Below the pieces are notes generated by a model. That model was given only the letters and a program-made list of their open reading frames with translations. It was not told the DNA's origin and did not search any database. Positions 4,966 to 33,131 of a stretch of 64,000 nucleotides of DNA are shown piece after piece; position 1 is the first letter of the stretch; every line of letters begins with the position of its first letter. Made by a program: the position numbers and the translations under genes. The DNA is from Candidatus Rokuibacteriota bacterium (GTDB lineage: Bacteria; Methylomirabilota; Methylomirabilia; Rokubacteriales; CSP1-6): positions 19,666 to 83,665 of the forward strand of contig QHRU01000040.1 in assembly GCA_003220225.1 (NCBI GenBank). Direction: 5' to 3'.

Positions 4966-5955
4966 GTGGACGAGCTCAGGAAAGACCCGACACGTGGGCA
5001 GTGGGTGCTCATCCGACCGAAAGGCGCGTGGGTGCCGGACGCGCCCTGCCGCTACTGCCCCGGCGCCGAGCACCTGACCGGAAGCGAGATCGCCGCCTAC
5101 CGCAAGGACGGCTCGCTCGCCAACGCCCCCGGCTGGACGGTGCGCGTGGTCCCCGAGGCCGACGCCTACTTCCGCATCGAGTGGGAGCTGGTCCGCGAGG
5201 GCGTCGGCATGTTCGACATGATCACGCCGCGCGGCGCCAGCGAGCTGATCGTCGAGTCACCCAACCACGACGACACGCTGGCCACGATGGACCCCGACCA
5301 GATCGAGGGCGTGCTCTGGATGTACCGCGACCGTCTCCTCGACCTCAAGCGCGATGGCCAGATCCGCGACATCCTCATCAACCGCCACCACAAGAAGCCC
5401 GGCGTTCCGCCCCACCATCCGTATTCCCGGGTCACCGCGATCCCGATCGTGTTCGACGAGACGCGGCGCGAGCTGTACCAGGCACGGGAGTACTACCAGT
5501 ACAAGCGCCGCTGCCTCTACTGCGACATGCTCCGCCAGGAGATCGCCGCCGAGGAGCGCGTGGCGAAGCTGATGCCGGGCTTCGCGGCGCTCGTGCCCTA
5601 CGCCTCGCGCACGCCGGGTGAAACCTGGATCGTGCCGCGCCAGCACGGCTGCTCGTTCGAGGACGCGCTGACCGCGGAGACCGGCCGCGACCTCGCGCGG
5701 CTGCTCTCGAGCTACTTCCGGACCCTTGCGCGCGCCTTCGGCGATCCCGGCTACGAGCTGGTGCTGCACACGGCGCCGAATCTCCGCTCGCGCATCCTCC
5801 AGGGGGACTGGGCGACGATCCGCGACGACTACCACTGGCACATCGAGATCGTCGTCCACCCGGAGCGCGCCAACACCGTCGGCGGCATCTTCATCAACGA
5901 AACCCCGCCCGAGCAGGTCGCCTCCGAATTGCGCCGAGCCTTCGACAGCCCGTAG
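4966..5955 (+). CDS. GalT-family (galactose-1-phosphate uridylyltransferase-like) HIT-superfamily nucleotidyltransferase
   Basis: 329 aa; CxxC zinc motif (CRYCPGAEH) and HxH (HWHIEIV) typical of GalT-like branch of HIT superfamily; GTG start. Confidence 0.45.
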   Translation: MDELRKDPTRGQWVLIRPKGAWVPDAPCRYCPGAEHLTGSEIAAYRKDGSLANAPGWTVRVVPEADAYFRIEWELVREGVGMFDMITPRGASELIVESPNHDDTLATMDPDQIEGVLWMYRDRLLDLKRDGQIRDILINRHHKKPGVPPHHPYSRVTAIPIVFDETRRELYQAREYYQYKRRCLYCDMLRQEIAAEERVAKLMPGFAALVPYASRTPGETWIVPRQHGCSFEDALTAETGRDLARLLSSYFRTLARAFGDPGYELVLHTAPNLRSRILQGDWATIRDDYHWHIEIVVHPERANTVGGIFINETPPEQVASELRRAFDSP

Positions 5956-7992: not shown

Positions 7993-9219
7993 ATGGGGCT
8001 GAAGTTTCCGATCTTCATGGACGCGCAGTCGACGACGCCGTGCGACCCGCGCGTGGTCGAGGCGATGCTGCCGTACTTTACCGAGAAGTTCGGGCACCCG
8101 GCCAGCCGCAACCATCCGTTCGGATGGGAGGCGGAGGGCGCGGTCGACGCCGCGCGCGCCAAGATCGCCACGCTGATCGGCGCGCGCGATCCGAAGGAGC
8201 TCGTCTTCACCTCGGGCGGCACCGAGGCGATCAACCTCGCCCTCAAGGGCGTGGCCGAGATGTACAAGGAGAAGGGCAACCACATCGTCACCACCGTCAT
8301 CGAGCAGCGCGCGAGCATCGACACGTTCAAGCGCCTCGAGCGGCAGGGGTTCCAGGTGACGTACGTGCCCGTGCAGCCCGACGGGGTCATCGACGTCGAG
8401 GAGATCCGCAAGGCGCTCACGGACAAGACGATCCTGATCTCCGTGATGTTCGCCAACAACGAGATCGGCACCATCCAGGACGTCGCGGCCATCGGCAAGC
8501 TCGCCAAGGAGAAGGGGATCATCTTCCATACCGACGCCACGCAGGCCGTCGGCAAGATCCCCGTCGACGTCGAGGCGATGGGCATCGATCTCCTGTCGTG
8601 CACCGCGCATCTCATCTACGGCCCCAAGGGCGTGGGCGCGCTCTACGTCCGGCGCAAGGGCCCGCGCGTGCGGATCGCGCCGATGATGGACGGCGGCGGC
8701 CACGAGCGCGGCATGCGCTCGGGGACCCTGCCGGTGCCGCTGATCGTCGGGTTCGGCAAGGCCGCGGAGATCTCGCGTGAGGTGATGGCCGAGGAAGGTG
8801 CGCGGCTGGCGAAGCTGCGCGACCGGCTCCAGGACGTGATCCTCTCGAGCGTGGAGGAGGCGTTCCTGAACGGCCGGCCGGACCGCCGGCTGCCCCAGAA
8901 CCTGAACATCTCCTTCGCCTACGTCGAGGGCGAGTCGGTGCTGATGGGGCTGAACAAGGAGACCGCGCTGTCGTCCGGGTCCGCGTGCACCTCGTCGACG
9001 CTGGAGCCCTCGTACGTGATCGCGGCGCTGGGCGCCTCCGCGGAGCTGGCCCACTCGTCGATCCGCTTCAGCCTCCATCGCTTCACGACGGCGGAGGAAG
9101 TCGAGTACGTCGGGCAGCGCACGATCGAGGTCATCAAGCGGCTGCGGGAGATGTCGCCGCTCTACGAGCTGGCGAAAGAAGGCGTGGATATCAAGACCAT
9201 CAAGTGGAAGGCCGACTAG
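7993..9219 (+). CDS. iscS: Cysteine desulfurase IscS
   Basis: 408 aa, near-colinear with E. coli IscS (SSGSACTS active-site Cys loop, PLP Lys region HKIYGPKG). Confidence 0.9.
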   Translation: MGLKFPIFMDAQSTTPCDPRVVEAMLPYFTEKFGHPASRNHPFGWEAEGAVDAARAKIATLIGARDPKELVFTSGGTEAINLALKGVAEMYKEKGNHIVTTVIEQRASIDTFKRLERQGFQVTYVPVQPDGVIDVEEIRKALTDKTILISVMFANNEIGTIQDVAAIGKLAKEKGIIFHTDATQAVGKIPVDVEAMGIDLLSCTAHLIYGPKGVGALYVRRKGPRVRIAPMMDGGGHERGMRSGTLPVPLIVGFGKAAEISREVMAEEGARLAKLRDRLQDVILSSVEEAFLNGRPDRRLPQNLNISFAYVEGESVLMGLNKETALSSGSACTSSTLEPSYVIAALGASAELAHSSIRFSLHRFTTAEEVEYVGQRTIEVIKRLREMSPLYELAKEGVDIKTIKWKAD

Positions 9220-9231
9220 GGGGATATCGCG

Positions 9232-9642
9232 ATGGCGTACAGCGACAAGGTAGTCGACCACTACAACAACCCGCGCAACGTCGGCTCCTTCGGCAAGGAG
9301 ACGCCGGGCGTGGGCACCGGGCTCGTCGGGGCGCCGGAGTGCGGCGACGTGATGAAGCTGCAGATCAGGGTCAACCTCGAGACCGGCGTCATCGAAGATG
9401 CCAAGTTCAAGACCTTCGGCTGCGGCAGCGCGATCGCCTCTTCGAGCCTGGCCACCGAGTGGCTCAAGGGCAAGACGATCGACGAGGCGGCGAAGATCAA
9501 GAACACCGACATCGTGAACGAGCTGAAGCTTCCGCCGGTGAAGATCCACTGCTCGGTGCTGGCGGAAGACGCCATCAAGGCGGCGCTCGCGGACTACAAA
9601 GAGAAGCACGCATCGGTGCCGAGCGGCGCCGCATCGAAATAG
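9232..9642 (+). CDS. iscU: Fe-S cluster scaffold IscU
   Basis: 136 aa; GAPECGDVMKLQ, LPPVKIHCS motifs diagnostic of IscU. Confidence 0.9.
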   Translation: MAYSDKVVDHYNNPRNVGSFGKETPGVGTGLVGAPECGDVMKLQIRVNLETGVIEDAKFKTFGCGSAIASSSLATEWLKGKTIDEAAKIKNTDIVNELKLPPVKIHCSVLAEDAIKAALADYKEKHASVPSGAASK

Positions 9643-9657
9643 GGGAGGAACCGAGTC

Positions 9658-9987
9658 ATGGCGGTCGTGTTGTCGGAGGCGGCGGCGAAGCAGGTGAAGG
9701 AGCTCAAGCAGGCGCAGAACCTGCCCGAGACGGCGTTCCTGAGGATGGGCGTGCGCGGCGGCGGGTGCTCGGGTATGTCGTACGTGCTGGAGTTCGACAC
9801 CGAGAAGAGCCCGCACGACAAGGAGTTCGACATCGACGGCGTGAAGGTCGTGATCGACAAGAAGAGCTACATCTATCTGAACGGCACGACCCTCGACTAC
9901 GTCACGCAGGGGCTGACGGGCGGCTTCACGTTCGTGAACCCGAGCGCGAAATCGTCCTGCGGGTGTGGAACCTCGTTTTCCGCGTGA
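9658..9987 (+). CDS. iscA: A-type Fe-S carrier IscA
   Basis: 109 aa; GGGCSG and C-terminal CGCGTSF motifs. Confidence 0.85.
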   Translation: MAVVLSEAAAKQVKELKQAQNLPETAFLRMGVRGGGCSGMSYVLEFDTEKSPHDKEFDIDGVKVVIDKKSYIYLNGTTLDYVTQGLTGGFTFVNPSAKSSCGCGTSFSA

Positions 9988-10014
9988 CACGACGGTAGTC
10001 CGCCGGCGGAGTTT

Positions 10015-12858: not shown

Positions 12859-13058
12859 TGACGTGGCGCGACGCGGAAGACATCGGCATCGCGCTCAGCG
12901 AGAAGTTTCCGGAGCAGGACCCGCTGACGGTGCGCTTCACGGACCTGCACCGCTACGTGACGGAGCTGCCGGAGTTCACGGACGACCCGAAGGCCAGCAA
13001 CGAGAAGCTGCTCGAGGCCATCCAGATGGCGTGGCTCGATGAGTACCGGAACCGCTAG
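12858..13058 (+). CDS. iscX: IscX (YfhJ) Fe-S assembly accessory protein
   Basis: 66 aa MTWRDAEDIGIALSEKFPEQDPLTVRFTDLHRYV... matches IscX; start overlaps fdx stop (TGATG). Confidence 0.75.
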   Translation: MTWRDAEDIGIALSEKFPEQDPLTVRFTDLHRYVTELPEFTDDPKASNEKLLEAIQMAWLDEYRNR

Positions 13059-13062
13059 GCCG

Positions 13063-13287
13063 CTACCAGGTCACGACCTGATCGGCCTCGAACACGGCCT
13101 CCAGGAGCCGCTCGTACGACCACTGATCGGGGACGCGGTGCACGGGGGCGCCGGCGGGCAGCGCCGGGGCGGTCGCCCCGGGCAGGAGCGCGACGGTGAC
13201 GGCGTCGCCGGCGGCGAGCTGGCGTTCGATGGTGGTCCGCGCGAGCGCGGTGTCGCCGCCCTTGAGGACGTGGAGCGTGCGCGCCAT
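13063..13287 (-). CDS. TusB/DsrH-like sulfur relay protein
   Basis: 74 aa, MxxTLHVL N-terminus and C-terminal W like TusB; last gene of DsrEFH-like triplet; only 4 bp from convergent iscX stop. Confidence 0.6.
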   Translation of the reverse strand: MARTLHVLKGGDTALARTTIERQLAAGDAVTVALLPGATAPALPAGAPVHRVPDQWSYERLLEAVFEADQVVTW

Positions 13288-13646
13288 CAGAACGCGATGA
13301 AGCGGCGCGCGGCGCGCACGAGGTCGGCGATCTGCTCGCGCGTCACCCGCACCACCTCGTGGCCCTCGGCGTTCCAGTCCGGGTCGGCGGGCACGGCGGA
13401 GGCCTCGACGTGGAACGGGATGCCCAGCCGCTTGAGGTTGGCGCGGAACTTCGCGATGTCGTCGCCGTCCACGAGGTCATCGGTGTCGCCGTCGAGCAGG
13501 TGGACGGCCGGCCCCGCCAGCACGAACGTCACCTCGTTCTCCCCGGCCACGATGCCGATGCCGATTCGCATGGCCTCGAACGCGCGGCCGGTTGCGCGCG
13601 GGTCCTGGGTGATGAGGACGAGGACCGGCTCGTCGGCCACGACCAC
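13287..13646 (-). CDS. TusC/DsrF-like sulfur relay protein
   Basis: 119 aa DsrE/DsrF-fold pattern (VTFVLAGPAV...IAKFRANLKRLGIPFHV); ATGA overlap with downstream gene. Confidence 0.6.
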   Translation of the reverse strand: MVVADEPVLVLITQDPRATGRAFEAMRIGIGIVAGENEVTFVLAGPAVHLLDGDTDDLVDGDDIAKFRANLKRLGIPFHVEASAVPADPDWNAEGHEVVRVTREQIADLVRAARRFIAF

Positions 13647-13650
13647 CCGC

Positions 13651-13977
13651 TCAGTTGAGCGCGACGAAGCGCTCGGTCGCGTTGATCAGATCGGTGAGCA
13701 CCACGAGGCCGCAATAGGTCACGCGGTCCGCGTGGTCGAGCGGGATGCGCCGCTTCTGGCAGCCGTACGCGCACACGAAGAGCTTGGCGCCGCGATCGGG
13801 CAGCGCGCGCACGCGCGCATCGTCGAGCGCGCGCACGCCGTCGTCGATCAGGTAGAGGTAGAGATCGGCGCCGCGCGCGAGGGCGGCCTCCGAGAGACCG
13901 ACGGCCGCGTCGAGGTTCGTCGCGTGCTCGGGACCCGTGGAGAGCAGCATCCCGAACTTTTTCTTCGACAGATCCAT
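13651..13977 (-). CDS. TusD/DsrE-like sulfur relay protein (conserved Cys)
   Basis: 108 aa; LFVCAYGC cysteine region comparable to TusD active-site Cys; first gene of triplet. Confidence 0.65.
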   Translation of the reverse strand: MDLSKKKFGMLLSTGPEHATNLDAAVGLSEAALARGADLYLYLIDDGVRALDDARVRALPDRGAKLFVCAYGCQKRRIPLDHADRVTYCGLVVLTDLINATERFVALN

Positions 13978-14018
13978 CGCGGGCGCAGCGTAGCATCGGC
14001 GATGAGGGAGAGCAAGGA

Positions 14019-15176
14019 ATGAACCGTCGTGTCTACCTCGATCACAACGCGTCGACGCCCGTGCACCCCGAGGTGGTGGCGGAGATGCTGCCGTACTTCA
14101 GCGACGTCTACGGCAACCCGTCGAGCGTGCACGGCTTCGGCCGCGACGCGCGTGCGGCGGTGGACGCCGCGCGCGACCGCGTCGCCGCGTTTCTGCGCGT
14201 GCGGCCGGAGGAGCTCGTGTTCACCTCGGGTGGGACGGAATCCGACAACTTCGGCGTGAAGGGCCTCGCCCTCGCGCGCGGCAGCGGCCACGTCATCACC
14301 AGCAGGGTCGAGCACCACGCGGTGCTGCGCTCGGCACAGGCGCTCGAGGCGCAGGGCTTCACGGTCACCTACCTGCCCGTCGACCAGTACGGCATGGTCG
14401 ATCCCGACGACGTGCGGCGCGCGCTGCGCCCCGACACGATCGCGATCTCGATCATGCACGCCAACAGCGAGGTCGGCACCATCCAGCCGGTGCGCGCGAT
14501 CGGCGCCCTGGCGCGTGACGCCGGCGTGCCCTTCCACGTCGACGCCGTGCAGACGTTCGGCAAGGTCGAGGTCGACGTGCACGCCATGAACATCGACGCG
14601 CTGTCGTTCTCGAGCCACAAGATCTACGGGCCCAAGGGCATCGCGGGCCTCTACATCCGCCGCGGCACCAAGATGGTCTCCATCCAGCACGGCGGCGAGC
14701 ACGAGCGGCGGCGGCGCGCCGGCACCGAGAACGTGCCGGGCATCGTGGGCCTCGGCAAGGCGGTCGAGATCCGCGCGCGCGACATGAAGGCCGAGGCGGA
14801 GCGGGTGAGCGCCCTGCGCGATCGCATGTGGGAGGGCATCCGCGCCCGCGTGCCGGACGTACGGCTCAACGGGCACCCGACCGAGCGCCTGCCGGGCACC
14901 GCCAACGTCTGCTACCGCAACGTCGAATCCGAATCCATCGTCCTCGGCCTGGATCTCAAGGGCATCGCGGTGTCGGCGGGCTCCGCCTGCACCGCGGGCA
15001 GCGTCGAGCCCTCGCACGTGCTGGTGGCCATGGGCGTGCCGCTCGACTGGGCGATGGGCGCCGTGCGCTCCTCGCTCGGCCGCTCGACGACGACCGAGGA
15101 CGTGGACTTCGTGGTGGCGTCGGTGACGGAGGTCGTCAGCCGGATCCGCCAGGCGATGCCGGTCGGAGCCGCATGA
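14019..15176 (+). CDS. nifS: NifS-type cysteine desulfurase (class I)
   Basis: 385 aa; [13 protein letters not shown]-Lys region, [10 protein letters not shown] catalytic Cys loop; second desulfurase in window. Confidence 0.85.
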
Positions 15177-18221: not shown

Positions 18222-18247
18222 GGGCGCGTGCCGCGCGACACGCGCCC
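18222..18247. terminator. GC-rich inverted repeat between convergent dinB and secreted-protein gene
   Basis: GGGCGCGTG-N8-CACGCGCCC. Confidence 0.4.
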
Positions 18248-18273: not shown

Positions 18274-20439
18274 TCAGGGGCCCGGATTGCACTTCCCGCC
18301 GTCGCCAGGCTGATTGCAGACATCGCTCGCGACCGCTTGCGCGATCAGGGCATCGCGGTCTGCCGCGAGCAGGTACCCTTGATTGAAGGCGTTGTTCGCG
18401 GCCGCCGTCACCGCGGCGACGTACCCGGCGTGGGTGCCGTAGCGCTCTTCCAGCGACAGGCGCGGATCGCCCGCGGCGAGCCGCTGCGCCTTGGTCTTGA
18501 AGAACGGCACCATGCCGCCCACGTAGTTGCAGACCTGTCCGGCGTGGAACGGCCTGCCGTCGTAGGCCGCGCGGCCCGGACCCGATGTGATGTTCCAGCC
18601 GAGATAGGTGCCGAGCGGCGCGTCACGCTGGACGGTCGGCACACCGCCCAATTCGTTGCCGTCCGCATCCACACGCGGCACCATCATCTTGATGACGTGC
18701 AGGATCGGGGGCGGCGCGTTCGTCGGGGTCCCGGTCGCGTCGCTCTCGTTGAACTCGGGACCCCAGTCGTAATCGAAGACCGGGAAGATGAAGTTCTCCG
18801 GCAGGAAGACCGAATCCGGAATGCCGGGCACGCCGCTCGGGAATCCCATGGCGGCCTTGGTCGGCTCGACCAGGGTCTTCTTCGCCAGCGTCGGCCACTG
18901 GCTCGGCGGCGGATCCACGCCGAGCATCACCCAGTCGCGCAAGGCGACCCGCATCCGATTGACCAGCCCGGTCGCGGGCACGGGATTCGCCAGCAACGTA
19001 CCTGTTCCCCAGTTGTTGCCGGGGCACCCGACGACGTTCTTCGGCGGATTTTCGGTGGTCGTCCCATTGCCGCCGCCGTGCGTCGAACTGGGCAGGTAGT
19101 AGCGGCGGACGTTCTTCGGCACTGGAATGTCGTTCTTCGCCGAGGTGCCGACCCAGGAGGTCGTCATCTTCAGCGCAAACACCTCGGCGCCGCCGAACGT
19201 CTCGACGATCTTCGGGCACGTCTTGGTCGCTTCACAGCGGTCGAGGATGCCCGCCGGGTGCAGACCGCGGACCGTGTCGGGGAACTGGTGCCACCACTGG
19301 GGACCTTCGCTGCCCATCTGGTAGAGCTCGAGCACGCCATCCGGCTGGCCCCAGCGGGAATTGTTGGCGACGCGACGACCCGCGATGAGCGGCCACGCGC
19401 CGTCGTGGACGATGCGTCCCTGTTCGTCCTGGTTCATGCCGAGATGGATGAAGTGCCGTGTGAAGTTGCCGGACTGCGACGACCCACGAATGATCGCCCA
19501 CTTGATGCTGCCCGCGAGCGGGTTCGGTGTGCCGAAGTCGTCATTGGGCTCATACCTGAAAAAGGACGCGACGTCGCGGAACGCTGCCGTGCCCGCGCCC
19601 AGGACGTACGGGTCCGTGACGGTGTAGACCAGCTGGTAGAGCTTCGTCGCATCGAAGCCGTCCTTCAGGCACAGCCGCACCGGTAGCGTGGTGACCGGCG
19701 TCGGCGCCGCGAACGTGCCACCGCCGCAGAAGTTCCAGTCGCTGTTCGGGATGGTGGATCCCTCGGTCACGATGCCGGTGATCGTCTCGTGCAGGTGCGT
19801 GGTCAGCGTCGCTCCGGCGTTGTTCGTGGGGTCGACCGGGAAATACGGAATCGGATTGCCCATCACGTTCAGCGGCTGCGCCCCGAGGCCGCTGCGATTG
19901 ATGATGCGGCCGACGATGTGTCCGGTCACGCCCGTGAGCACCGGCACCTTCACCCACTCATTGCTGCTCGGGGTGACCGGGGCAAGCGTCGATGCATTTG
20001 CGGGGACGATCGTCGCGGGCGCGGTCACCGGGTTCGCGCCGGCGTTGTCACCCTGCCAGCCGCTGCTCAAGCCGACGTCGCTCAGGTTACGCAGATCCGG
20101 CGTGATGGTGATCCGGCCGCCGCGGTTCGGCACGTCGTGCCACATCAGCCCGCTCGCCCGCGACATGTCGACGGGCTTGACGATGAAGAAGCTGGCGACG
20201 TACCCGACCTTGCCGTTGACCCGTGGGGCCAGGTCGATGTCCGTGATGAGCGTGTTGAGCGGATCGCTCGGATCCAGCTCGCCGAACGCGCGCCCGGTCA
20301 GCCTCTCGTAGGGAATGTTCTGACCGGTCAGGGGCTCGGTCTTGTCGATGATGATTCTCGTCACGCGGGCGTGCGCCGCCGGCGCCCACGCGAGGACCGC
20401 GACCACGACGAGCATGAACCACGTCGCTCGATGTCTCAT
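18274..20439 (-). CDS. Secreted protein of unknown function, paralog A (721 aa)
   Basis: Sec signal peptide (MRHRATWFMLVVVAVLAWAPAAHA); clearly alignable to upstream paralog (DDFGTPNPL, FPxKTKAxRLAxGDPRxSxEERY, GWxxxxGP blocks); strong GC3 bias. Confidence 0.75.
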   Translation of the reverse strand: MRHRATWFMLVVVAVLAWAPAAHARVTRIIIDKTEPLTGQNIPYERLTGRAFGELDPSDPLNTLITDIDLAPRVNGKVGYVASFFIVKPVDMSRASGLMWHDVPNRGGRITITPDLRNLSDVGLSSGWQGDNAGANPVTAPATIVPANASTLAPVTPSSNEWVKVPVLTGVTGHIVGRIINRSGLGAQPLNVMGNPIPYFPVDPTNNAGATLTTHLHETITGIVTEGSTIPNSDWNFCGGGTFAAPTPVTTLPVRLCLKDGFDATKLYQLVYTVTDPYVLGAGTAAFRDVASFFRYEPNDDFGTPNPLAGSIKWAIIRGSSQSGNFTRHFIHLGMNQDEQGRIVHDGAWPLIAGRRVANNSRWGQPDGVLELYQMGSEGPQWWHQFPDTVRGLHPAGILDRCEATKTCPKIVETFGGAEVFALKMTTSWVGTSAKNDIPVPKNVRRYYLPSSTHGGGNGTTTENPPKNVVGCPGNNWGTGTLLANPVPATGLVNRMRVALRDWVMLGVDPPPSQWPTLAKKTLVEPTKAAMGFPSGVPGIPDSVFLPENFIFPVFDYDWGPEFNESDATGTPTNAPPPILHVIKMMVPRVDADGNELGGVPTVQRDAPLGTYLGWNITSGPGRAAYDGRPFHAGQVCNYVGGMVPFFKTKAQRLAAGDPRLSLEERYGTHAGYVAAVTAAANNAFNQGYLLAADRDALIAQAVASDVCNQPGDGGKCNPGP

Positions 20440-20464
20440 GCGCGTCTCTCCTCGGGCCGCAGCC

Positions 20465-22627
20465 CTAGTCGTCGTCTCTCTCGTCGTCCCTGTCGTCCCC
20501 GTGGTGTTCGTTCTTGTCGCCGCAGAGCGGCACCGGGGACACGGCGGGCGGCGGGCCCGGCGGCGCGGGCACGCCCTGGGCCAGTCCCAGCGCGATCAGT
20601 CGCGCGTACTCGCTGGCAGTGTCCTCGCACAGCATCAGGCGATCCTCGACCATCTCCCTGATCGCGTGGGCCACCCGGTGCTGGTACTGCTCGAACGTCG
20701 GATAGCGCTCCTCGACCGACTGGCGCGGATCGCCGGAAGCCAGGCGGTCGGCTTTGGTCTTCGGGAACGGGACGAACTGGCCCGCGCTCTCGCAGCCGTC
20801 GTTGGCCTGGGGGCCGGCCCGCAGCGCCCAGCCAGTATACGTGGCGATCGGCACGGTGACATCGACCAGACGCACGCCTGCGATGTCGTTGCCGTCGCGG
20901 TCGGTCTTCGGGATGAAGCTCGGATAGATCGGTCCGTTGTGCGGATTGTCCTCGTACGGCGGCGTGATCAGGGGCGGGTTGACCGTCGCAATACCGGTGT
21001 CGTAGTAGTGCGGCCCGTAGTCGAGCAGATAGCGCGTCGTCTTGAGACCGGTGTAGGTGACGCCCGGAATGCTGGGGAAGCCCATGCCCGCCTGCGGCAG
21101 CGGCGGCACCAGGGTCTTGTCGTGAAGCCTCGGCACCCGGCTGCGCGGCGGCTTCGTGTGCTCGGTCGCCCACTCGTCCAGTGCGACGAACAGGGCGCGC
21201 TGCACCGGCGCGGAGTTCAGCGGATTCAGGAACTGCTGGCAGTTGCCCTTCGACGCGCTGTTGCCGGTGCCGTGCTGGTGGCTGGAGATCAGGTAGTTGC
21301 GCGTGAACCGCGACTCGTGGAGGTCCCTGGTGCCCTGAGAATTGGTGTGCAGGAGCGAGGCGGCCTTCACCCAGTACTCGTTGGCCGAGTAGATCTCCAC
21401 GCCGTACGGGCAGGTGCCGGTCTCCTTGCAGCGCGCGTACCGGCTATCTGTCTTGCCCGTGATCGGATCGTGTGTCTTCACGTTGGCGAACGGAAAGACC
21501 CCCTCGGCGTAGAGATGATCCTGGCGGTTGCGCTCGGTGCGGCCCGGCTGCGAGAACCGGTAGTTCATGTTGATGCCGTCGCCCGCCGCGATCCACTGCA
21601 TCAGGCCGTCGAACACCTTCTTGCCGTTCTCGGCCTGGTTGAAGCCGAGGTGCCGGAAGTCGTTGAGCAGCCGTCCGGGCTGCGAGACGACTTCCGTGTA
21701 GATCCGCTGGATGTCCCCCTTCAACGGATTGGGCGTGCCGAAGTCGTCGGCCGCCTCGTACCGCAGCCAGGCGTTCCAGTCCCGGATGGCGGCGAATCCC
21801 AGCCCGTTCACGGACGGGTCGTTGGCCGTGTACGAGAACTCGTAGATGTCGTTCGCGACCCAGCCTGCCGGGACCAGGTTGATCGTCGTTCCGCTCGCGT
21901 TGTACGTCCAACCCGTCGCGGGAATCACCGCGGGCACGTCGTTCAGGTGAACGCGATGGGTCAACGTCGCCTTGCTCTTGTCGAGCGTGGCCGCCGGATA
22001 GTTGAGCGGGAACGCGGCCGTTCCCGACATCACGATGTACTCGTACGCCGGCCCGGTGATCGACGAGCCATCGGCGTTCTTGGCGATCGGCAGCGTGATC
22101 GTCGTGTTGAAGCCCGCAGTGCTGGTGCCCGCCGCCTTGTCCCAGCCGCTCCACACCATCGTGTAGCCGCGCGGCATCAGGAAGGCGTTTGCCAGCACGG
22201 TCGGGTCCGTGACCGAGCCGGGGTCGTTGCCGCCGGGCATGCGACCGAAGTTTCCCCACGTTTTGCCGCCGCGGTTCGGCGGCTCGTACATCACCTTGTG
22301 CGCGCCGCGACTGAGGTCGATCGGCTTGAGGATGTAGAAGTCGAACGAGTACTCGACCTTGCCGCCGGCGTTCCGCGGCGCGAGCTGGATGTCCACGATC
22401 ACGGCGTTCTTCGTGTCGAAGGGATCGACCTCGCCGAACGCCTTGCCGACGACCTTCTCGTACTGTCCGACGCCCGGCCACGAATAGCCGCCAAACGTCG
22501 GCGATTCGGTGGCCGTGACCTGGATCCTGACGATGCGGGCGTCGGCGGTGCCGGGCGAGCCGCACACGGCAAGCAGGGCGAGGATCGCGAGCAGACAGGA
22601 AGCCGTCCAGCGCGTTCGTGCGTTCAT
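20465..22627 (-). CDS. Secreted protein of unknown function, paralog B (720 aa), acidic C-terminal tail
   Basis: Signal peptide; same conserved blocks as paralog A; 25-bp intergenic spacer suggests co-transcription; divergent from LysR gene. Confidence 0.75.
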   Translation of the reverse strand: MNARTRWTASCLLAILALLAVCGSPGTADARIVRIQVTATESPTFGGYSWPGVGQYEKVVGKAFGEVDPFDTKNAVIVDIQLAPRNAGGKVEYSFDFYILKPIDLSRGAHKVMYEPPNRGGKTWGNFGRMPGGNDPGSVTDPTVLANAFLMPRGYTMVWSGWDKAAGTSTAGFNTTITLPIAKNADGSSITGPAYEYIVMSGTAAFPLNYPAATLDKSKATLTHRVHLNDVPAVIPATGWTYNASGTTINLVPAGWVANDIYEFSYTANDPSVNGLGFAAIRDWNAWLRYEAADDFGTPNPLKGDIQRIYTEVVSQPGRLLNDFRHLGFNQAENGKKVFDGLMQWIAAGDGINMNYRFSQPGRTERNRQDHLYAEGVFPFANVKTHDPITGKTDSRYARCKETGTCPYGVEIYSANEYWVKAASLLHTNSQGTRDLHESRFTRNYLISSHQHGTGNSASKGNCQQFLNPLNSAPVQRALFVALDEWATEHTKPPRSRVPRLHDKTLVPPLPQAGMGFPSIPGVTYTGLKTTRYLLDYGPHYYDTGIATVNPPLITPPYEDNPHNGPIYPSFIPKTDRDGNDIAGVRLVDVTVPIATYTGWALRAGPQANDGCESAGQFVPFPKTKADRLASGDPRQSVEERYPTFEQYQHRVAHAIREMVEDRLMLCEDTASEYARLIALGLAQGVPAPPGPPPAVSPVPLCGDKNEHHGDDRDDERDDD

Positions 22628-22702
22628 TCACGTTCTCCTCAGCGCGAGGGGCTCCGCTCAGCGCGCGCCGGGAGAGTGCACCGGCCGCCGGCGTTCAGGC
22701 AA

Positions 22703-22731
22703 TTGAATATTTGTTATTGCAGTCATATAGT
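22703..22731 (+). promoter_or_regulatory. Sigma70-like promoter for LysR gene (TTGAAT-N17-TATAGT), probably leaderless, overlapping GCAAT-N12-ATTGC dyad
   Basis: Only AT-rich patch in 110-bp divergent intergenic region; -10 ends 6 nt before ATG 22738; dyad 22699-22720 resembles a LysR T-N11-A type box. Confidence 0.45.
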
Positions 22732-22737
22732 CCCGCT

Positions 22738-23643
22738 ATGAATTTCACCCTCCGTGAGCTCGAGGCGTTTCTGGGCGTCGCCCGTCTCGGAAACTTCACC
22801 CGTGCCGCCAAGGCGCTGAACATGTCGCAGCCCGCGCTCACCGTCCGCATCCGCCATCTCGAGGAGGCGCTCGGCGTGCGGCTGCTCGATCGCACCACGC
22901 GCTCCGTGGCGCTGACGCAGATCGGGCGCGAGTTCCTGCCGGTCGTCGCGCGCGTGCTGGGCGAGATCGACGCGGTGGCCGTCAATGCCCGCGACGTCGC
23001 GGGACGGCGACGCGGCGTCGTCACCGTCGCCGCCCTGCCGTCCGCGGCGTCGACGCTGCTGCCCGCGATCATCGCGGCCTTCAAAGCCCGCCACCGCGGC
23101 ATCGTCGTGCGGCTGCGTGACGGTGTCGCGCAGCGCGTGACGGCGCTCGTGAAGTCGGGCGAAGCCGACTTCGGGATCGGCAGCCCGACGAAGCGCGACC
23201 CCGAGCTGCGGTGCTCGCCGCTCCTGTCCGACCCGATGAGTGCGGTCTTTCCGCCGGGGCACCCGTTCGAGCAGCGTGCCGCGGTGCGCCTGGAAGATCT
23301 GCTGACGGTGCCGCTCATCCTCATGGACAGCGAATACAGCGTTCGCACGCTGGTCGACCAGGCGTTCGAGTCGATCGGCAAAGGGGTCGCGCCCGCCTAC
23401 GAGGCGAGCTACGTGTCCACGGCGCTCGGGCTCGTCAAGGCCGGCCTGGGCGTCGCGGTGCTCGCGTACTCGGCCGCCGACGAGGCCGCCACGCAGGCGG
23501 CCGCGCTCCGGGCGCGCGTCATCGAGCATCCGATGCTCGTCCGCGAGATCAGTCTCATCGAGAGCACGAGGCGCTCGCTGTCGCCGGCCGCGCAGCAGTT
23601 CCTCGAGGCGGTGCGCCAGGGGGCGCCGCGGCGGATCGCGTGA
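22738..23643 (+). CDS. LysR-family transcriptional regulator
   Basis: N-terminal HTH (LRELEAFLGVARLGNFTRAAKALNMSQPALTVRIRHLEEALGVRLLDR) plus C-terminal substrate-binding domain. Confidence 0.85.
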   Translation: MNFTLRELEAFLGVARLGNFTRAAKALNMSQPALTVRIRHLEEALGVRLLDRTTRSVALTQIGREFLPVVARVLGEIDAVAVNARDVAGRRRGVVTVAALPSAASTLLPAIIAAFKARHRGIVVRLRDGVAQRVTALVKSGEADFGIGSPTKRDPELRCSPLLSDPMSAVFPPGHPFEQRAAVRLEDLLTVPLILMDSEYSVRTLVDQAFESIGKGVAPAYEASYVSTALGLVKAGLGVAVLAYSAADEAATQAAALRARVIEHPMLVREISLIESTRRSLSPAAQQFLEAVRQGAPRRIA

Positions 23644-23716
23644 GCGCGATTTGCGGGCCGTCGGCGCATCGGCTACACTCGCTGAACAGCGGTTCATTCG
23701 CCCCGGAGGCCAACGC

Positions 23717-24472
23717 ATGGATCGACCGATCGCCTACGACAAGCTCGCGCGCGAGGACCGCTTCGTGCGCATGCGTGCGCGCGAGGTCGGCGAGCTGAAG
23801 GTCGAGCAGGGTCTGCCGCCGTTCCCCGACCTCGCGAGCCGAGAGTCCATTCGCGAGCGCGTGCACGGCATCATGGTCGGCGAGCTCCAGGCGATGGAGG
23901 GCGCCGGCCGCACCGTCTACGACTTCCCGGAGGCGCCGTGGGAGTTCACGCTGGACATGGCGCGGCAGGTGTGGGACGAGTCGCGCCACGTCGAGACCTA
24001 CCTCGGCCTGCTCGAGCACCTCGGCGGCCGGGTGGGCGAGTTCCCGGAGTCCACCATCCTCTGGCGCTGCGCGTGCGCGGAAGACGCCGCCGCCCGCGTG
24101 GCCGGCGTCAACCGCGGTCTCGAGGGCCTGGCGTGCGACGTCTTCAACCAGCTCATTCACATCGCGCAGAAGATCGGCGATCCGATCATCGAGAAGTCGG
24201 TGGACTACGTGCTGGCCGACGAGATCACGCACGTGCGCATGGGCTCGCGCTGGCTCAACGAGCTGACGCGCGGCGACGCCGAGCGCCGGCGCAAGGCCAT
24301 CGAGTTTCAGGAGACGATCGACGAGCGCTTCAACCTGGGCGGCAGCCGCCAGGACGGCCACCACGAGGTGGTGCCGATCTCGATCGCCAAGGAGGCGCGC
24401 AAGCTCGCGGGCTTCACCGACGAGGAGATCGAGCGGCTCATCAAGAGCACGCAGCGCTCGCAGGTGTATTGA
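23717..24472 (+). CDS. Ferritin-like diiron-carboxylate protein (DUF455-like)
   Basis: Two E...ExxH motifs (WDESRHVE; ADEITHV) with ~100 aa spacing; overall pattern resembles DUF455 family. Confidence 0.65.
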   Translation: MDRPIAYDKLAREDRFVRMRAREVGELKVEQGLPPFPDLASRESIRERVHGIMVGELQAMEGAGRTVYDFPEAPWEFTLDMARQVWDESRHVETYLGLLEHLGGRVGEFPESTILWRCACAEDAAARVAGVNRGLEGLACDVFNQLIHIAQKIGDPIIEKSVDYVLADEITHVRMGSRWLNELTRGDAERRRKAIEFQETIDERFNLGGSRQDGHHEVVPISIAKEARKLAGFTDEEIERLIKSTQRSQVY

Positions 24473-25452
24473 GCTCCCACCACCTCGCGGGCCACTTCTC
24501 CGTCGACGACTCCGCGCGGCGGATCCGCAACTACCGGTACGCCGAGGAGCGCATGATGCGCGTGCTCGGCGGCTGGATCGCGCTGACGCCCGAGCTGCCC
24601 GCCAAGCTGCTGTTCGGCCGCCACGTGTGGGACTGCGCCCAGCACGCGGATCTCTGGGGACGGCGGCTGCCCGAGCTGCGCGCGGCGGCGCACGAATCGG
24701 AGCCGGCGAACGACGCGATGGTCGCCTTCACGGAGATGCTCGAGAGTCCGGAGGGTCCGCGGCAGACGCTCGAGCGCATCGTCGGCGTCTACGCCGTGCT
24801 CAAGCCGCACCTCGTGACGGTCTACGCGCGTCACCTCGCGTCGACGAACGCCGTGTACGAGCCGCCGACCCGGCGCATCCTGACCCGCTGCCTGGAGGAG
24901 GAGCGGCGCCACGCCGCCGCCGGCGCGATCGTGCTCGACCGGCTCGCGCGCGACGCCGCCGGCCGCGCGCGCGTCGCCGACTGCGCGCGGCGCCTGCTCG
25001 CGGCGCTCGAGAAGGCCGGCGGCGTCACGGGCGACGCGCCGGCGCCGCTCGTGGACCCCGCGCTGCTCGACGTGGCCCCCGAGATCGTCGCTCCCGATCT
25101 CGTCCAGGTTCCGCCGGACTTCGATCCCGCCGCGCTGTCCGCCGATCTCGCGTCCGCCGTGAACGACCATCGCGAGTCGCTGGAGTCGGGTGACGCCGCG
25201 GGCGCCGCGGAGTGGGTCGAGCCCGGGGCGCGCGACGCGCTGAGCGCAGCCTTCGCCCCCCTCGCGGGCGGGATCACCAGCACGCGCGTCGTCGGTCTCG
25301 CCGCGATCGGCCGCCAGCAGATGGTCAAGCTGCGGATCGAAAGCCCGCGCGCGATCGGCTTCGTCCAGCTCCGCTGGACGCAGACGACGTCGGGCTGGCG
25401 CATCGCCGCCGGCGACCTGGTCTCCACCGAGCCCGTCTCCGCCGCTCCCTGA
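24469..25452 (+). CDS. Ferritin-like (putative diiron) domain protein with C-terminal NTF2/SnoaL-like domain
   Basis: TTG start overlapping upstream stop (TTGA); ExxH-like motifs (DCAQH; EEERRHAA) and C-terminal ...WTQTTSGWRI beta-rich domain. Confidence 0.55.
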   Translation: MSSHHLAGHFSVDDSARRIRNYRYAEERMMRVLGGWIALTPELPAKLLFGRHVWDCAQHADLWGRRLPELRAAAHESEPANDAMVAFTEMLESPEGPRQTLERIVGVYAVLKPHLVTVYARHLASTNAVYEPPTRRILTRCLEEERRHAAAGAIVLDRLARDAAGRARVADCARRLLAALEKAGGVTGDAPAPLVDPALLDVAPEIVAPDLVQVPPDFDPAALSADLASAVNDHRESLESGDAAGAAEWVEPGARDALSAAFAPLAGGITSTRVVGLAAIGRQQMVKLRIESPRAIGFVQLRWTQTTSGWRIAAGDLVSTEPVSAAP

Positions 25453-30120: not shown

Positions 30121-31359
30121 GTGAGCCTCTCGCCGGTCGCCGCGCTGGCGGGGCGGCTGGTGGTGGCCGAGGTCCTCCAGGAGCCGAGCTACCGTCGGCT
30201 CTGGGTCTCCGGCCTCTGCGTCAATGTCGCGCGCTGGATGGACCTCGTCACGGTCGGATGGCTGGCGCTCCAGCTCACCGGCTCGCCCTTCATGGTCGGT
30301 CTCGCGGCATTCGCGCGCGCGGCCCCGCTGATGGCCGTCGGGCCCTTCGCCGGCATCGTGGCCGATCGCATGGTGCGCGGGCGGGTGCTGCTGGCCGCGC
30401 AGTCGGTCGGTCTCGTGACGGCGCTCGCGCTCGCCGCGATCTTCGCCAGCCGCGCGGGCGGCTACTGGCCCCTGGTCGCGCTGGAGATCGTGTTTGGCGC
30501 GATGTGGGCGCTGGACTTCCCGGCGCGCCGCACCGCGCTCTACACGATCCTCGGCGCCTCGCGCGTCGCCCAGGCCGTCTCGCTCGAGACCGTCTCGATG
30601 CAGATCGCCAAGATGCTCGGCCCGCTGGCCGCCGGCGTCTGCCTCGCGCGGCTGGGCCCGGCCGCGTCGTATCTGGTCATGGCGCTCGTGTACACGGCGG
30701 GGCTGCTCGCATCCCGCGGTCTCGTCGGGCGGCTCGGCGGTCCGGGCGGCGGTGCGCCGACGTCCGTGGTGGCGAGCCTGCGTACGGGTCTGCAGGCGGC
30801 GTGGACGAGCCCGACCGTGCGCGGCGTGTTGCTCGTCACCGTCGCGATGAACACGCTGTTCTTTCCCTACCAGCACATGCTGCCCGTCTTCGCGCGCGAC
30901 GTCCTGGCCGTCGGCCCGACCGCGCTCGGCGCGCTCGTCGCGGCCGACGGCTGCGGCGCGCTGCTCGGCGCGCTGATGATCGCCTCGCGAGGCGGTCAGT
31001 TCGCCCAGCGCACGCTGTTCGCCGCCTCCGTGCTCGTGGCGCCGGTCCTCCTCGTGGCGCTGTCCGGCTCGCGCTCGTTCCTCGCGTGCGTCGCGCTGCT
31101 GGTCGTCATGGGCGCGGCGGAGTCGGGGTTCGCCGCGATGCAGAGCACGCTCGTGCTGCTCTCGGCGCCCGAGCGGGTGCGGGGCGGGGCGATGGGGATC
31201 CTGTCGGCGTGCATCGGGACGCAGCCGCTCGGCACGCTGGCCATCGGCCTGCTGGCGGCCAGCGTGGGCGCGCCCCTGGCCTTCGCCGTGAACGCGCTCG
31301 CCGCCCTGCTCGTGATCATCCCGCTCGCGGTGCCGCTCGCGCGGGGCCGCCCCGGCTGA
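30121..31359 (+). CDS. MFS transporter (EntS/YbdA-like)
   Basis: 412 aa, about 12 TM segments, MFS motif region GxxADRxxRxR. Confidence 0.75.
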   Translation: MSLSPVAALAGRLVVAEVLQEPSYRRLWVSGLCVNVARWMDLVTVGWLALQLTGSPFMVGLAAFARAAPLMAVGPFAGIVADRMVRGRVLLAAQSVGLVTALALAAIFASRAGGYWPLVALEIVFGAMWALDFPARRTALYTILGASRVAQAVSLETVSMQIAKMLGPLAAGVCLARLGPAASYLVMALVYTAGLLASRGLVGRLGGPGGGAPTSVVASLRTGLQAAWTSPTVRGVLLVTVAMNTLFFPYQHMLPVFARDVLAVGPTALGALVAADGCGALLGALMIASRGGQFAQRTLFAASVLVAPVLLVALSGSRSFLACVALLVVMGAAESGFAAMQSTLVLLSAPERVRGGAMGILSACIGTQPLGTLAIGLLAASVGAPLAFAVNALAALLVIIPLAVPLARGRPG

Positions 31360-31367
31360 GCGCGGGC

Positions 31368-32612
31368 TCAGCAGTAGCGGCAGGGCGGGACGTCGCGGCT
31401 GTAGACGGGCTGCCGGAGAAAGGCATCCGGGCTGTACTTCCAGAACTGCGAGACGGCGGGGATCGTCACGATCACGGTGTTCTGGAGCTCGCCCTCTCGG
31501 TTGCGCTCCACTTTCCTGAAGTAGACGTTCTGGATCGGATTGCCGTACGTGTCGAGCCTGACGGGCCCCCGCGGCGCGTCGGCGATCTCGACCTTCCGCA
31601 GCGCCGCCAGCAGCTTCTCGCGGTCTTCCACGTTGCCGCCGAGCGCCTTGACCGCCTCGTTGATCCAGCGTCCGCTCGTGTAGTTCGTCTCCGAAAAGTA
31701 GGAGGGGACCTTGCCGAAGCGCGCGCGGTACTCCTTGACGAAGCGCCGGTTGGCGGGCGTCTCGAGCGCGCCGCTGTAGATGAGCGGAGTGACGACGCCC
31801 AGGGCCTCGTCGCCCATCGACGGCAGGAGGGCCTCGTCGACGGCCGGGCCGCCGCCGATCAGCGGGATCCTGGCCTTCAGCCCCGCCTCCTCGTACTGCT
31901 TGAGGAACTGCAGCGTCGAGGCGCCGGCGATCATCGTCAGGACCGCGTCGGCGTCCCGGCGGATCTTCGCGATGTACGGCGAGAGATCCATGACGCCGAG
32001 CGGGGCCCAGAGCTTCTGGATCACCTGGCCGCCGTTCTCCTCGAACGTGCGCTGGAATCCACCGACGACTTCCCAGCCGAACGCGTAGTCGGAGGCGACG
32101 ACGGCGACCTTGCGATAGCCGAGCGTCCTGGCGGCGTACTCACCGAAGGGGTGGGAGGGCTGGCTCGACGCCCACCCGGTCCGGATGACCCAGCGGTACT
32201 TGAGCCGCTGCGTGAGGTCGTCCGAGGCCGCGACGGTGAAGAGCGCCGGGATGCGGTACTCCTCCACCTTCGGGGCCATCGCGTAGCCGATGTGGCCGAA
32301 GAGCACGCCGGCCACGATGTGGACGCGGTCGTGCTCGACGATCTTGCGCAGCTTGGTCAGCGCGACGTCGGGCCGGCCCTGGCTGTCTTCCACGATCAGC
32401 TCGACCTTCCGCCCCGCCATCTGCGAGCCGATCTCGTCCAGGTACAGCGTCAGGCCGTTGACCATGTCCTTGGCCGCCTGCGCCGCCGGCCCGGTGAGGT
32501 CGGTGACGAAGCCGATCCTGATCGGCCCCGGCTGAGCCGGGGCCACGCCGATACCCGCGAGGAGGAGGACCAGCAGGGCGCCCAGCACGATCGAGAACCT
32601 GTTCGCACTCAT
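31368..32612 (-). CDS. ABC transporter substrate-binding protein (branched-chain amino acid/LivK family)
   Basis: Signal peptide MSANRFSIVLGALLVLLLAGIGVAPAQP; type-I periplasmic binding fold; SD ggaggag upstream of ATG 32612. Confidence 0.8.
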   Translation of the reverse strand: MSANRFSIVLGALLVLLLAGIGVAPAQPGPIRIGFVTDLTGPAAQAAKDMVNGLTLYLDEIGSQMAGRKVELIVEDSQGRPDVALTKLRKIVEHDRVHIVAGVLFGHIGYAMAPKVEEYRIPALFTVAASDDLTQRLKYRWVIRTGWASSQPSHPFGEYAARTLGYRKVAVVASDYAFGWEVVGGFQRTFEENGGQVIQKLWAPLGVMDLSPYIAKIRRDADAVLTMIAGASTLQFLKQYEEAGLKARIPLIGGGPAVDEALLPSMGDEALGVVTPLIYSGALETPANRRFVKEYRARFGKVPSYFSETNYTSGRWINEAVKALGGNVEDREKLLAALRKVEIADAPRGPVRLDTYGNPIQNVYFRKVERNREGELQNTVIVTIPAVSQFWKYSPDAFLRQPVYSRDVPPCRYC

Positions 32613-32678
32613 GGCCGCTCCTCCTGGTGGACGGGGTTGCGCCAGATGATAGCGCCCTCCGCGTGCTATAGGGACGGG

Positions 32679-33131
32679 GTGAGGATCGCGCTTGCCGCCG
32701 TCCTGCTCTGGGCCACCACGGTGTCCGCGCAGCCGGCTCAGTATCGCCACGCCTACTATTTTGTTCCTCGCCGACAGGGTGACGGGCTGCGAGCCCTGCT
32801 ACATCCCGTTGCTGCTGACCTCCGCGCCGCTCGACGCGCTCGGCGTCCCGGCTCTCGATGTCGTCGTGATCACGACGTACGAGCGCGACTCGATCTGGTC
32901 GTCGGAGAAGGCGTGCGGCTCGCGGCGGCCGACGTCGTCCCGGTCGGGCGGACGCTACGTCTGCGCGACAAGCGCTATCGCTACCAGGAGATCTCGCCCC
33001 GCGAGGTCGTGCGGCTGCTGGAGAATCCCCGCGGTGCGATCCCGATCGGCCGACCGATGACGCCGGCGCTGCCCGCGGCCGAGCTCGCCCAGCTGCTCGC
33101 CGACTTCCGCGCGCTCTCCACCGAACGCTGA
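32679..33131 (+). pseudogene. Small secreted protein ORF requiring two compensating frameshifts (pseudogene or indel error)
   Basis: Signal peptide in frame 0, codon-bias-supported middle segment in frame +1 (100% GC3 over 19 codons vs 47%), C-terminal segment back in frame 0. Confidence 0.35.

Follow-up and report, generated by a model that had tools for sequence, protein, structure and literature searches.

A 64-kb window of DNA from Candidatus Rokuibacteriota (the whole stretch that was analyzed, 64,000 nucleotides in length) encodes two adjacent genes, here denoted A and B, that are arranged head-to-head with a gene for a LysR-type regulator (lysR). Both encoded proteins belong to the Pfam family PF20091 (Abhydrolase_10), and our analyses suggest that they are probably exported serine esterases whose genes are co-transcribed and controlled by LysR. 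A and B are new members of a family that is already named but uncharacterized, and they do not represent a new kind of system.

Matches to PF20091 far exceeded the curated gathering cut-off of the model (23 bits) for both A (135.5 bits, E = 3.3e-39) and B (110.8 bits, E = 1e-31), and the domain was carried by all of the homologs listed (240/240). A preliminary description of this DNA, compiled from the sequence alone, had assigned the two proteins to an unrecognized family, and these matches supersede that statement. Public proteins from metagenome-assembled genomes (MAGs) of Candidatus Rokuibacteriota match those of the window exactly, with members of the A and B clusters labeled ‘hypothetical protein’, and a Burkholderiales ortholog (P0068) bears the NCBI name ‘alpha/beta hydrolase domain-containing protein’. 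When 1.84 billion cluster representatives (counted at the 50% identity level) were searched with a profile, 10,900 members of the family were recovered at E ≤ 1e-3, of which 1,917 also reached E ≤ 1e-30. The majority comprise 650–750 amino acids (aa) and align end to end, such that the lengths of A and B are typical; most are exported and derive mainly from soil and freshwater bacteria. The Pfam model aligns from approximately residue 260 onward (profile positions 128–429), and family-wide similarity begins at the mature N-terminus. The motifs shared across the family (N-R-G, G-x-S-Q, E, H-G, DxDGN, and GDPR..ERY) are all found in A and B, with the exception of the Gly at Nu-2 (two residues ahead of the nucleophile), which is Val in B.

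Searches of the PDB, conducted with A alone and with a 93-sequence profile, returned no match even at E ≤ 10. A search of NCBIfam returned noise only for A and nothing for B, and when three sub-segments taken from A were searched against Pfam (E ≤ 10), PF20091 was the only match apart from one at noise level (E = 3.7). The literature yielded nothing on the function of PF20091, Abhydrolase_10, DUF6351, PF19878, or IPR045394. The earlier failure to place the pair in a well-characterized family with a known function is thus borne out, in that no NCBIfam model, PDB sequence relative, or paper naming PF20091 was found.

AlphaFold2 (AF2) models of A (predicted local distance difference test [pLDDT] 85.7, predicted template modeling score [pTM] 0.88) and B (pLDDT 82.0, pTM 0.85) share the same topology. 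Each comprises one large alpha/beta-hydrolase-type core with long insertions (in A, roughly residues 130–260 and 352–409) and a C-terminal extension that bears the conserved motifs DxDGN and GDPRxSxEERY. Every top Foldseek match of A in the PDB, and almost every one of B, was an alpha/beta hydrolase, although the matches were weak (E ≥ 1.7e-3). They included CE7 acetyl xylan esterases, a CE15 glucuronoyl esterase, LipA, SulE, MHETase, and prolyl oligopeptidase/DPP-IV. A Foldseek search of a viral structure library returned nothing informative. The order that typifies the superfamily (nucleophile, acid, and then His, with a strand-nucleophile-helix elbow) is present in the AF2 secondary structure of both proteins. 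In A, strand 314–320 is followed by S321 and helix 322–332, strand 410–416 is followed by E419, and strand 444–449 is followed by H454; in B, the same order is observed with S315, E417, and H452, including a strand-Ser-helix arrangement at S315. Secondary-structure order and conservation together lead us to predict the triads Ser321/Glu419/His454 in A and Ser315/Glu417/His452 in B, in which Glu would be an unusual choice of acid. An invariant P-N-R-G-G loop (residues 104–108 of A) comes after strand 98–102, which along the chain is the position where oxyanion-hole loops normally lie.

Conservation of these residues extends well beyond the orthologs of A and B. Among 110 diverse members of PF20091 with approximately 30–40% identity to A or B, the Ser was conserved in 98%, the His in 99%, the Glu in 95% (with Asp in four others), and N-R-G in 98–99%; the same elements were invariant in both the A clade (38 sequences) and the B clade (55 sequences). 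The elbow of A reads R-G-S-S-Q-S-G, and its G-x-S-Q-S form was identified in 76 of the 110 members. The elbow of B reads E-V-V-S-Q-P-G and is without the Gly at Nu-2; this x-x-S-Q-P form is shared by B and a minority subfamily that is 43–70% identical to B. Because Ser, Glu, and His are invariant in every B-clade sequence, we interpret B as a putatively active enzyme with a variant elbow.

A and B are most likely Sec-exported proteins of approximately 75 kDa each. According to a heuristic check of the N-termini, the signal peptide of A spans residues 1–24 (MRHRATWFMLVVVAVLAWAPAAHA, followed by R, with AHA as the AxA site) and that of B spans residues 1–30 (MNARTRWTASCLLAILALLAVCGSPGTADA, followed by R, with ADA as the AxA site). 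In both proteins the n-region is positively charged, the hydrophobic core reaches a Kyte-Doolittle maximum of 3.3, and the AxA site is immediately ahead of the first conserved strand, in agreement with the Sec signal peptides proposed in the preliminary description. Neither N-terminus contains a canonical lipobox or a twin-arginine (Tat) motif, both of which were looked for. The possibility that B is a lipoprotein was rejected, since its L-A-V-C sequence departs from a canonical lipobox and contains a non-conserved Cys. Signal-peptide-like N-termini were identified in 199 of 229 close homologs and in 78 of 103 diverse homologs. A conserved pattern of Cys residues (C402/C408/C472/C637 in A; C400/C406/C463/C612 in B) is also shared by the two proteins. 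At its C-terminus (20465–20560, minus strand; residues ~690–720), B carries a Pro-rich stretch and then an acidic, His/Asp-rich, low-complexity tail (…CGDKNEHHGDDRDDERDDD). This tail has a pLDDT < 50 and is weakly conserved in orthologs (33–40% identity within the final alignment window of 60 residues); metal binding or simple disorder are possibilities.

The anatomy of the pair is summarized in Table 1. The lengths of the two open reading frames (ORFs) and the distance between them agree with those given in the preliminary description, as do most of the sequence blocks that it reported. DDFGTPNPL is exact in both proteins, and SQxG..HLGxNQxE and KTKAxRLAxGDPRxSxEERY were also found; the block quoted as FPxKTKA is real, although its correct form is F[FP]KTKA. 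Over their full length (approximately 720 columns), A and B are 32% identical (BLASTP, E = 8e-84), and they are the only two members of PF20091 that a search of the window identified. A terminator scan detected no terminator-like site between B and A, and because the intergenic spacer is also very short, the two genes are very probably co-transcribed. Beyond A, a GC-rich inverted repeat likely acts as a bidirectional terminator without a U-tract and would mark the end of the operon.

Table 1. Features of the A/B locus and its control region (positions within the 64-kb window).
Feature	Position	Strand	Description
GC-rich inverted repeat	18222..18247		Repeat search; two 13-nt arms that are 92% complementary and have no loop; located where gene A and the DNA polymerase IV gene converge at their 3' ends
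Gene A	18274..20439	-	721-aa ORF; exported PF20091 (Abhydrolase_10) alpha/beta hydrolase (export predicted)
B-A spacer	20440..20464	-	25 bp; from sequence; ribosome-binding site GAGGAG at 20453..20448
Gene B	20465..22627	-	720-aa ORF; exported PF20091 paralog (export predicted)
Divergent control region	22628..22737		110 bp between B and lysR; conserved blocks across orthologous loci
Candidate B-A promoter	22673..22702	-	TTGCCT (22702..22697), 18-nt spacer, CACTCT (22678..22673); not called by the consensus scan
Dyad GCAAT-N12-ATTGC	22699..22720		Arms 22699-22703 and 22716-22720; includes palindrome CAATTG at 22700-22705
Predicted lysR promoter	22703..22731	+	TTGAAT-17-TATAGT; promoter scan, sigma-70-like; -10 ends 7 nt ahead of ATG 22738
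LysR-type regulator gene (lysR)	22738..23643	+	301 aa; HTH_1 PF00126 (E = 2.7e-22), LysR_substrate PF03466 (E = 2.6e-47)

To place the pair in a comparative context, loci of relatives were retrieved (denoted by L-numbers), comprising 80 soil loci retrieved with B; 80 genome loci were also examined. A and B form separate ortholog groups (> 70% identity), each of which is represented on hundreds of soil-metagenome contigs. Because each gene has its own widespread ortholog group, the duplication is ancient and not local; the earlier description of a duplicated, co-transcribed pair therefore holds for the adjacency of the paralogs and, very probably, for co-transcription, but not for a recent local duplication. 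Of the 50 soil metagenome loci that could be assessed, 23 have an A-type gene directly downstream of B, and the closest A orthologs (≥ 65% identity) in genome loci retrieved with A usually adjoin a B-type gene. The pair was observed in MAGs labeled as Burkholderiales, Gemmatimonadales, Dehalococcoidia, Phycisphaerae, and Casimicrobiaceae, labels that are not fully reliable; binning errors are also possible. The gene order is mostly B followed by A, with short spacers recurring; the reverse order was identified in L004, L009, and L017, and in L006 (445–7271) A, a DUF6351 gene, and B are found in a row. The identities of A and B to their counterparts co-vary across loci. Single genes also occur: B is found alone with long flanks in L005, L092, L112, L114, L125, and others, A is found alone in L088 and L090, and more distant A-like genes in Burkholderiales isolates (such as Variovorax, Ramlibacter, and Roseateles; 52–62% identity) are single-copy. 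Collectively, these observations indicate that pairing is frequent and old yet not obligatory, and two cooperating specificities fit them better than does an obligate heteromer.

Several additional observations concern the history of the pair. A orthologs that are 68–76% identical to A were identified in MAGs labeled as Phycisphaerae, Gemmatimonadales, Acidobacteria, Dehalococcoidia, and Burkholderiales (L006, L008, L013, L014, and others); this level of identity between phyla suggests horizontal spread of the gene, or of the B-A cassette, among soil bacteria. In the syntenic relative L154 (on a contig shared with L086, WNFQ01001721), the A ortholog is 92–100% identical in its C-terminal half and 60–87% identical in its N-terminal half. 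B in this locus is approximately 73% identical, as compared to 96% for the flanking DUF455 gene, and its LysR scores 561 bits (near full length) versus 617 bits for the near-identical copy in L095. The B gene of the window has higher identity (83%) to the lone B genes of L096–L098, which lie in other contexts. This mosaic divergence suggests that the module has undergone recombination or the replacement of alleles. A 756-aa protein encoded upstream of lone B genes (L092 3476–5746; also L093 and L094) was considered as a hidden third paralog and was found to be unrelated (hhalign probability 0.3%, no Pfam match).

The regulator gene begins at ATG 22738 rather than at GTG 22618 of the ORF list, because the resulting 301 aa matches the length of its orthologs; the helix-turn-helix domain then begins at approximately residue 5. 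With this start, the head-to-head arrangement of lysR and the pair across 110 bp, as originally proposed, is confirmed. All NCBIfam equivalog models scored beneath their cut-offs against LysR (the best was PsrA, with 182 bits versus a 540-bit cut-off). Public records name it ‘LysR family transcriptional regulator’ (Candidatus Rokuibacteriota); the JGI label ‘carnitine catabolism activator’ was assigned automatically and is unverified.

The GCAAT-N12-ATTGC dyad that had been noted between the divergent genes is in place and occurs once in the 64-kb window, where 0.06 occurrences would be expected by chance. It overlaps the predicted lysR promoter at its -35 element and spacer, contains a T-N11-A motif (T22704..A22716), and is a candidate LysR binding site. 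Its perfect form is specific to the window, however, with one arm invariant and the other kept as ATnGC in orthologous loci. An 11-mer core, ATATTCAATTG, was shared by all loci that have an orthologous LysR (19 of 19) and was absent from the 155 other loci. When 14 non-redundant orthologous intergenic regions were aligned, CAATTGAATATT and CAGTCATATAG were invariant or nearly so, and both coincide with the hexamers of the lysR promoter. The lysR mRNA is probably leaderless, since the 7 nt between the -10 element and the start codon leaves no room for a Shine-Dalgarno sequence. The arrangement of promoter and ATG (22703–22740, plus strand) is itself kept in the 14 non-redundant orthologous loci. 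On the opposite strand, facing the hydrolase genes, the pattern TTG[CT]C[TC]-18-CA[CG]T[CG]T (also given with TTGCC[TC] as its first element) is conserved in orthologous loci among flanking bases that vary. TTGCCT-18-CACTCT is plausibly a weak, activator-dependent promoter for B-A that would be back-to-back with the lysR -35 element within the CAATTG palindrome.

Of 52 assessable loci, 14 carry an orthologous LysR (defined by a score of ≥ 400 bits) in divergent orientation upstream of B, and the occurrence of this LysR is correlated with that of A (counts of 9/1/8/19; Fisher p = 0.002). Together with the invariant promoter/operator block, the orthologous LysR was identified beside B or A orthologs in 19 loci that represent at least four flanking contexts, and its adjacency persists despite differences in the other flanks (L088, L106, L108, and L121–124). 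In L088, a LysR that is 74% identical adjoins a lone A ortholog. Non-orthologous LysR genes flank the pair in L089, L011, and L090. The synteny with LysR that the preliminary description proposed to examine is therefore kept in one lineage only, that of the window, and it is found in few of the 80 genome loci.

We propose the following mechanism, which we regard as fairly likely. Gene anatomy, family membership, fold, residue conservation, and synteny were shown by the analysis, and from these we infer catalysis, the triads, the class of substrate, the promoter positions, and LysR control. A and B are anciently diverged paralogs of PF20091, each with one large alpha/beta-hydrolase fold, and each would most likely act as a serine hydrolase, in which the elbow Ser would be activated by the His after the last core strand and by the Glu after the preceding strand. 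B and A would be transcribed as a single operon from the weak promoter that is back-to-back with that of lysR, and LysR would bind the conserved CAATTG-centered block, repress its own gene, and activate B-A upon binding of a ligand. The substrates would be carboxylic esters whose hydrolysis releases an acid for uptake, with complex or aromatic esters of plant or soil organic matter being the likeliest, and A and B would differ in specificity or catalyze successive steps.

A number of observations weigh against parts of this proposal, and they are considered here with the alternatives to which they lend support. They apply first to regulation. Many B and A orthologs are without a nearby LysR, which is not a general neighbor in the 80 genome loci and is missing for most members of PF20091 elsewhere. 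The conserved block is fixed relative to lysR and not to the hydrolase gene (73 bp to the start of B in the window, 252 bp to the start of the A ortholog in L088), and its conserved positions match the -35 and -10 elements of lysR at least as well as they match a LysR box, such that the block may serve lysR expression only. In addition, synteny counts are phylogenetically non-independent, with nine LysR loci sharing the DUF455 synteny of Rokubacteria.

These points raise the possibility that the targets of LysR are limited to its own gene or to the genes downstream of it (encoding DUF455, a 327-aa protein of unknown function, and biotin carboxylase), with its adjacency to the hydrolases being inherited synteny. 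This alternative, to which the retention of the DUF455 and unknown genes downstream of lysR in the same nine loci also lends weight, is one that we regard as a real but minority prospect. It does not readily account for the loci in which an orthologous LysR stays by a B or A ortholog even though the DUF455 side has been replaced (L088, L108, and L121–124), nor for the second conserved pattern, which faces the hydrolase genes; moreover, a divergent arrangement with a target operon is the norm for the LysR family. Given that the block keeps a constant spacing to lysR and not to the start of the hydrolase gene, we can only infer that B-A is under LysR control, and we consider such control to be somewhat favored.

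Downstream of lysR on the same strand (23651–25452) are genes for a DUF455 protein and the 327-aa ORF, which has no Pfam match, and then for biotin carboxylase. LysR, DUF455, and the unknown ORF retain 75–96% identity as a trio in Rokubacteria-like contigs. DUF455 and the 327-aa ORF might be a second target of LysR.

The nature of the substrate was evaluated from fold matches and genomic neighbors. Recurrent neighbors in related loci encode Tannase (PF07519), tannase-like DUF6351, CHRD, gamma-glutamyl transpeptidase, TctC (15 loci), and DctP; the last two are periplasmic carboxylate-binding proteins. A gene for Abhydrolase_1 is directly upstream in eight loci from Comamonadaceae/Alcaligenaceae; like Tannase and DUF6351, its product is counted among the exported hydrolases. 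In L001 (1–10322), genes for Tannase, gamma-glutamyl transpeptidase, and DUF6351 precede B-A, which is followed by CHRD, and in L010 two Tannase genes and a CHRD gene are located downstream of A; L001, L006, L010, and L090 look like multi-esterase islands in soil MAGs. Because fold matches are dominated by esterases and because of these recurrent neighbors, hydrolysis of carboxylic esters with release of an acid is favored, albeit with low confidence in the class of substrate.

The window itself provides little such context, as the pair has no catabolic or transport neighbor there and is flanked by genes for DNA polymerase IV, DUF455, biotin carboxylase, and housekeeping functions. Neighbors in related loci also vary widely and include peptide-related genes (gamma-glutamyl transpeptidase, M16 peptidase, or amidohydrolases) that adjoin the pair in some cases and would fit an amidase or peptidase role. 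A and B could accordingly be exported serine peptidases or amidases (S9/S15-like) and not carboxylesterases, a prospect that is in keeping with Foldseek matches to prolyl oligopeptidase, DPP-IV, acylaminoacyl peptidase, and oligopeptidase B. The higher-ranked structural matches, however, are esterases (CE7, CE15, SulE, and LipA), no peptidase family of Pfam was matched by either protein, even with a cut-off of E ≤ 10, and the commonest hydrolase neighbors are tannase-type esterases, with carboxylate-binding proteins recurring as well. We consider a peptidase or amidase function to be a live but unlikely alternative and retain the esterase interpretation.

The catalytic assignments warrant similar scrutiny. 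No characterized member of PF20091 and no solved relative was found when they were looked for, and the predicted triads were positioned by secondary-structure order and conservation, not by three-dimensional geometry. For B, the presence of Val/Ile at Nu-2 (where 93% of the family has Gly) and of Pro at Nu+2 may compromise or alter catalysis. B could then be a catalytically impaired or non-catalytic partner in an A-B heteromer, serving in substrate binding or regulation, with only A (G-x-S-Q-S) being active. The adjacency of B and A across phyla and the correlated divergence of the two genes would fit such a partnership, as would the greater divergence of B in the syntenic loci L111, L154, and L172 (72–76% identity, versus 77–89% for A). 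Set against this are the invariance of Ser, Glu, His, and N-R-G throughout the B clade (55 of 55 sequences) and the broader x-x-S-Q-P subfamily, and the loci, described above, where B or A stands alone. We judge an impaired B to be quite improbable, and the interpretation of both proteins as active enzymes is preferred. It is highly improbable that A and B are not enzymes at all and are instead exported binding or structural proteins that retain a hydrolase-like fold, since, although no reported activity was found for any member of PF20091 and the large non-catalytic insertions and conserved C-terminal extension would suit such a role, the near-universal Ser, His, acid, and oxyanion-region loop among the 110 diverse sequences would be hard to explain without catalysis.

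Other genes in the window encode serine acetyltransferase, an HD protein, a carboxyltransferase alongside the biotin carboxylase, DnaK, cysteine desulfurases, and RpoD, in addition to the DNA polymerase IV and DUF455 proteins. Four long plus-strand ORFs had no Pfam match at E ≤ 1e-5 (30258–33131, 957 aa; 4966–5955; 8985–9998; and 13039–14022), and some of these may be spurious in a genome with 70% GC.

The locus itself is of modest interest; it is of more interest as a way into PF20091, a very large family that ranks among the bigger ‘dark’ hydrolase families and for which no structure or substrate of any member was found. To what was available for this family, our analysis adds the predicted assignment of a Ser-Glu-His triad, a subfamily with a variant elbow, a recurrent pattern of partner genes, and a LysR lineage with an operator-like block. 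With respect to annotation, two ‘hypothetical proteins’ become exported alpha/beta hydrolases of PF20091, with export predicted. With respect to enzyme discovery, in particular for hydrolysis of esters in lignocellulose, tannins, and polyesters, the locus offers a specific pair to express, and the ligand of LysR could reveal the substrate. A more speculative idea, to which we attach a low probability, is that B-A is a two-subunit exported hydrolase in which B is a specialized or altered partner, and that PF20091 is a new class of Ser-Glu-His esterases, distant kin of tannases, that acts on complex soil esters. If true, this would provide a function for a family of > 10,000 sequence clusters that has no characterized member.

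Among known systems, the best-ranked structural neighbors of A and B are CE7 enzymes (acetyl xylan esterase/cephalosporin C deacetylase; TM0077, Bacillus pumilus AXE, and BF1801, 3nuz), although the similarity is weak (TM ≤ 0.46). CE7 enzymes are intracellular and hexameric. A and B are exported proteins of approximately 700 aa with Glu as the predicted acid, H-G, N-R-G-G, and, in B, V-V-S-Q-P, in contrast to CE7 enzymes, which comprise approximately 320 aa with a Ser-Asp-His triad and HE. Resemblances include the Gln after the nucleophile (GXSQG in CE7, GSSQS in A) and an Arg-Gly motif early in the fold. The signature motifs of CE7 are RGQ, GXSQG, and HE (PMC9606172). A and B match these only in part and have no match to PF05448 (AXE1) at E ≤ 1, and membership in CE7 was rejected.

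The second comparison is with the tannase/feruloyl esterases (PF07519; e.g., MHETase) and DUF6351 (PF19878), which are likewise large secreted alpha/beta hydrolases with big insertions. Their genes repeatedly adjoin PF20091 genes (L001, L006, L010, L025, and L090), and MHETase is among the fold matches of B. Unlike tannases, which bear G-C-S-x-G-G and H-C, A and B lack this Cys pair (in A, no Cys is next to S321 or H454), and neither protein has a Pfam match to PF07519 or PF19878. Alignment with hhalign to the neighboring tannases (probability 5.9%) placed ‘THGGGNG...ALRDWV.LG..PP’ on the tannase sequence ‘AHCGGGTG...PLEHWVEDGIAP’, that is, H454 and the next helix on the ‘HCGGG...WVE.G.AP’ region; the corresponding probability for DUF6351 was 3.6%. 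These probabilities are too low to demonstrate homology to either neighbor, and that claim was dropped; the alignment around the predicted catalytic His may be taken as a lead for distant kinship and not as a demonstration.

Finally, the regulator differs from known LysR-type regulators in that it reaches no equivalog model and its mRNA is apparently leaderless. In other respects it resembles LysR-type systems, in its HTH_1 and LysR_substrate domains, its divergent 110-bp region, and an AT-rich dyad with T-N11-A over the regulator's own promoter. This architecture fits classical LysR-type autoregulation combined with divergent activation.

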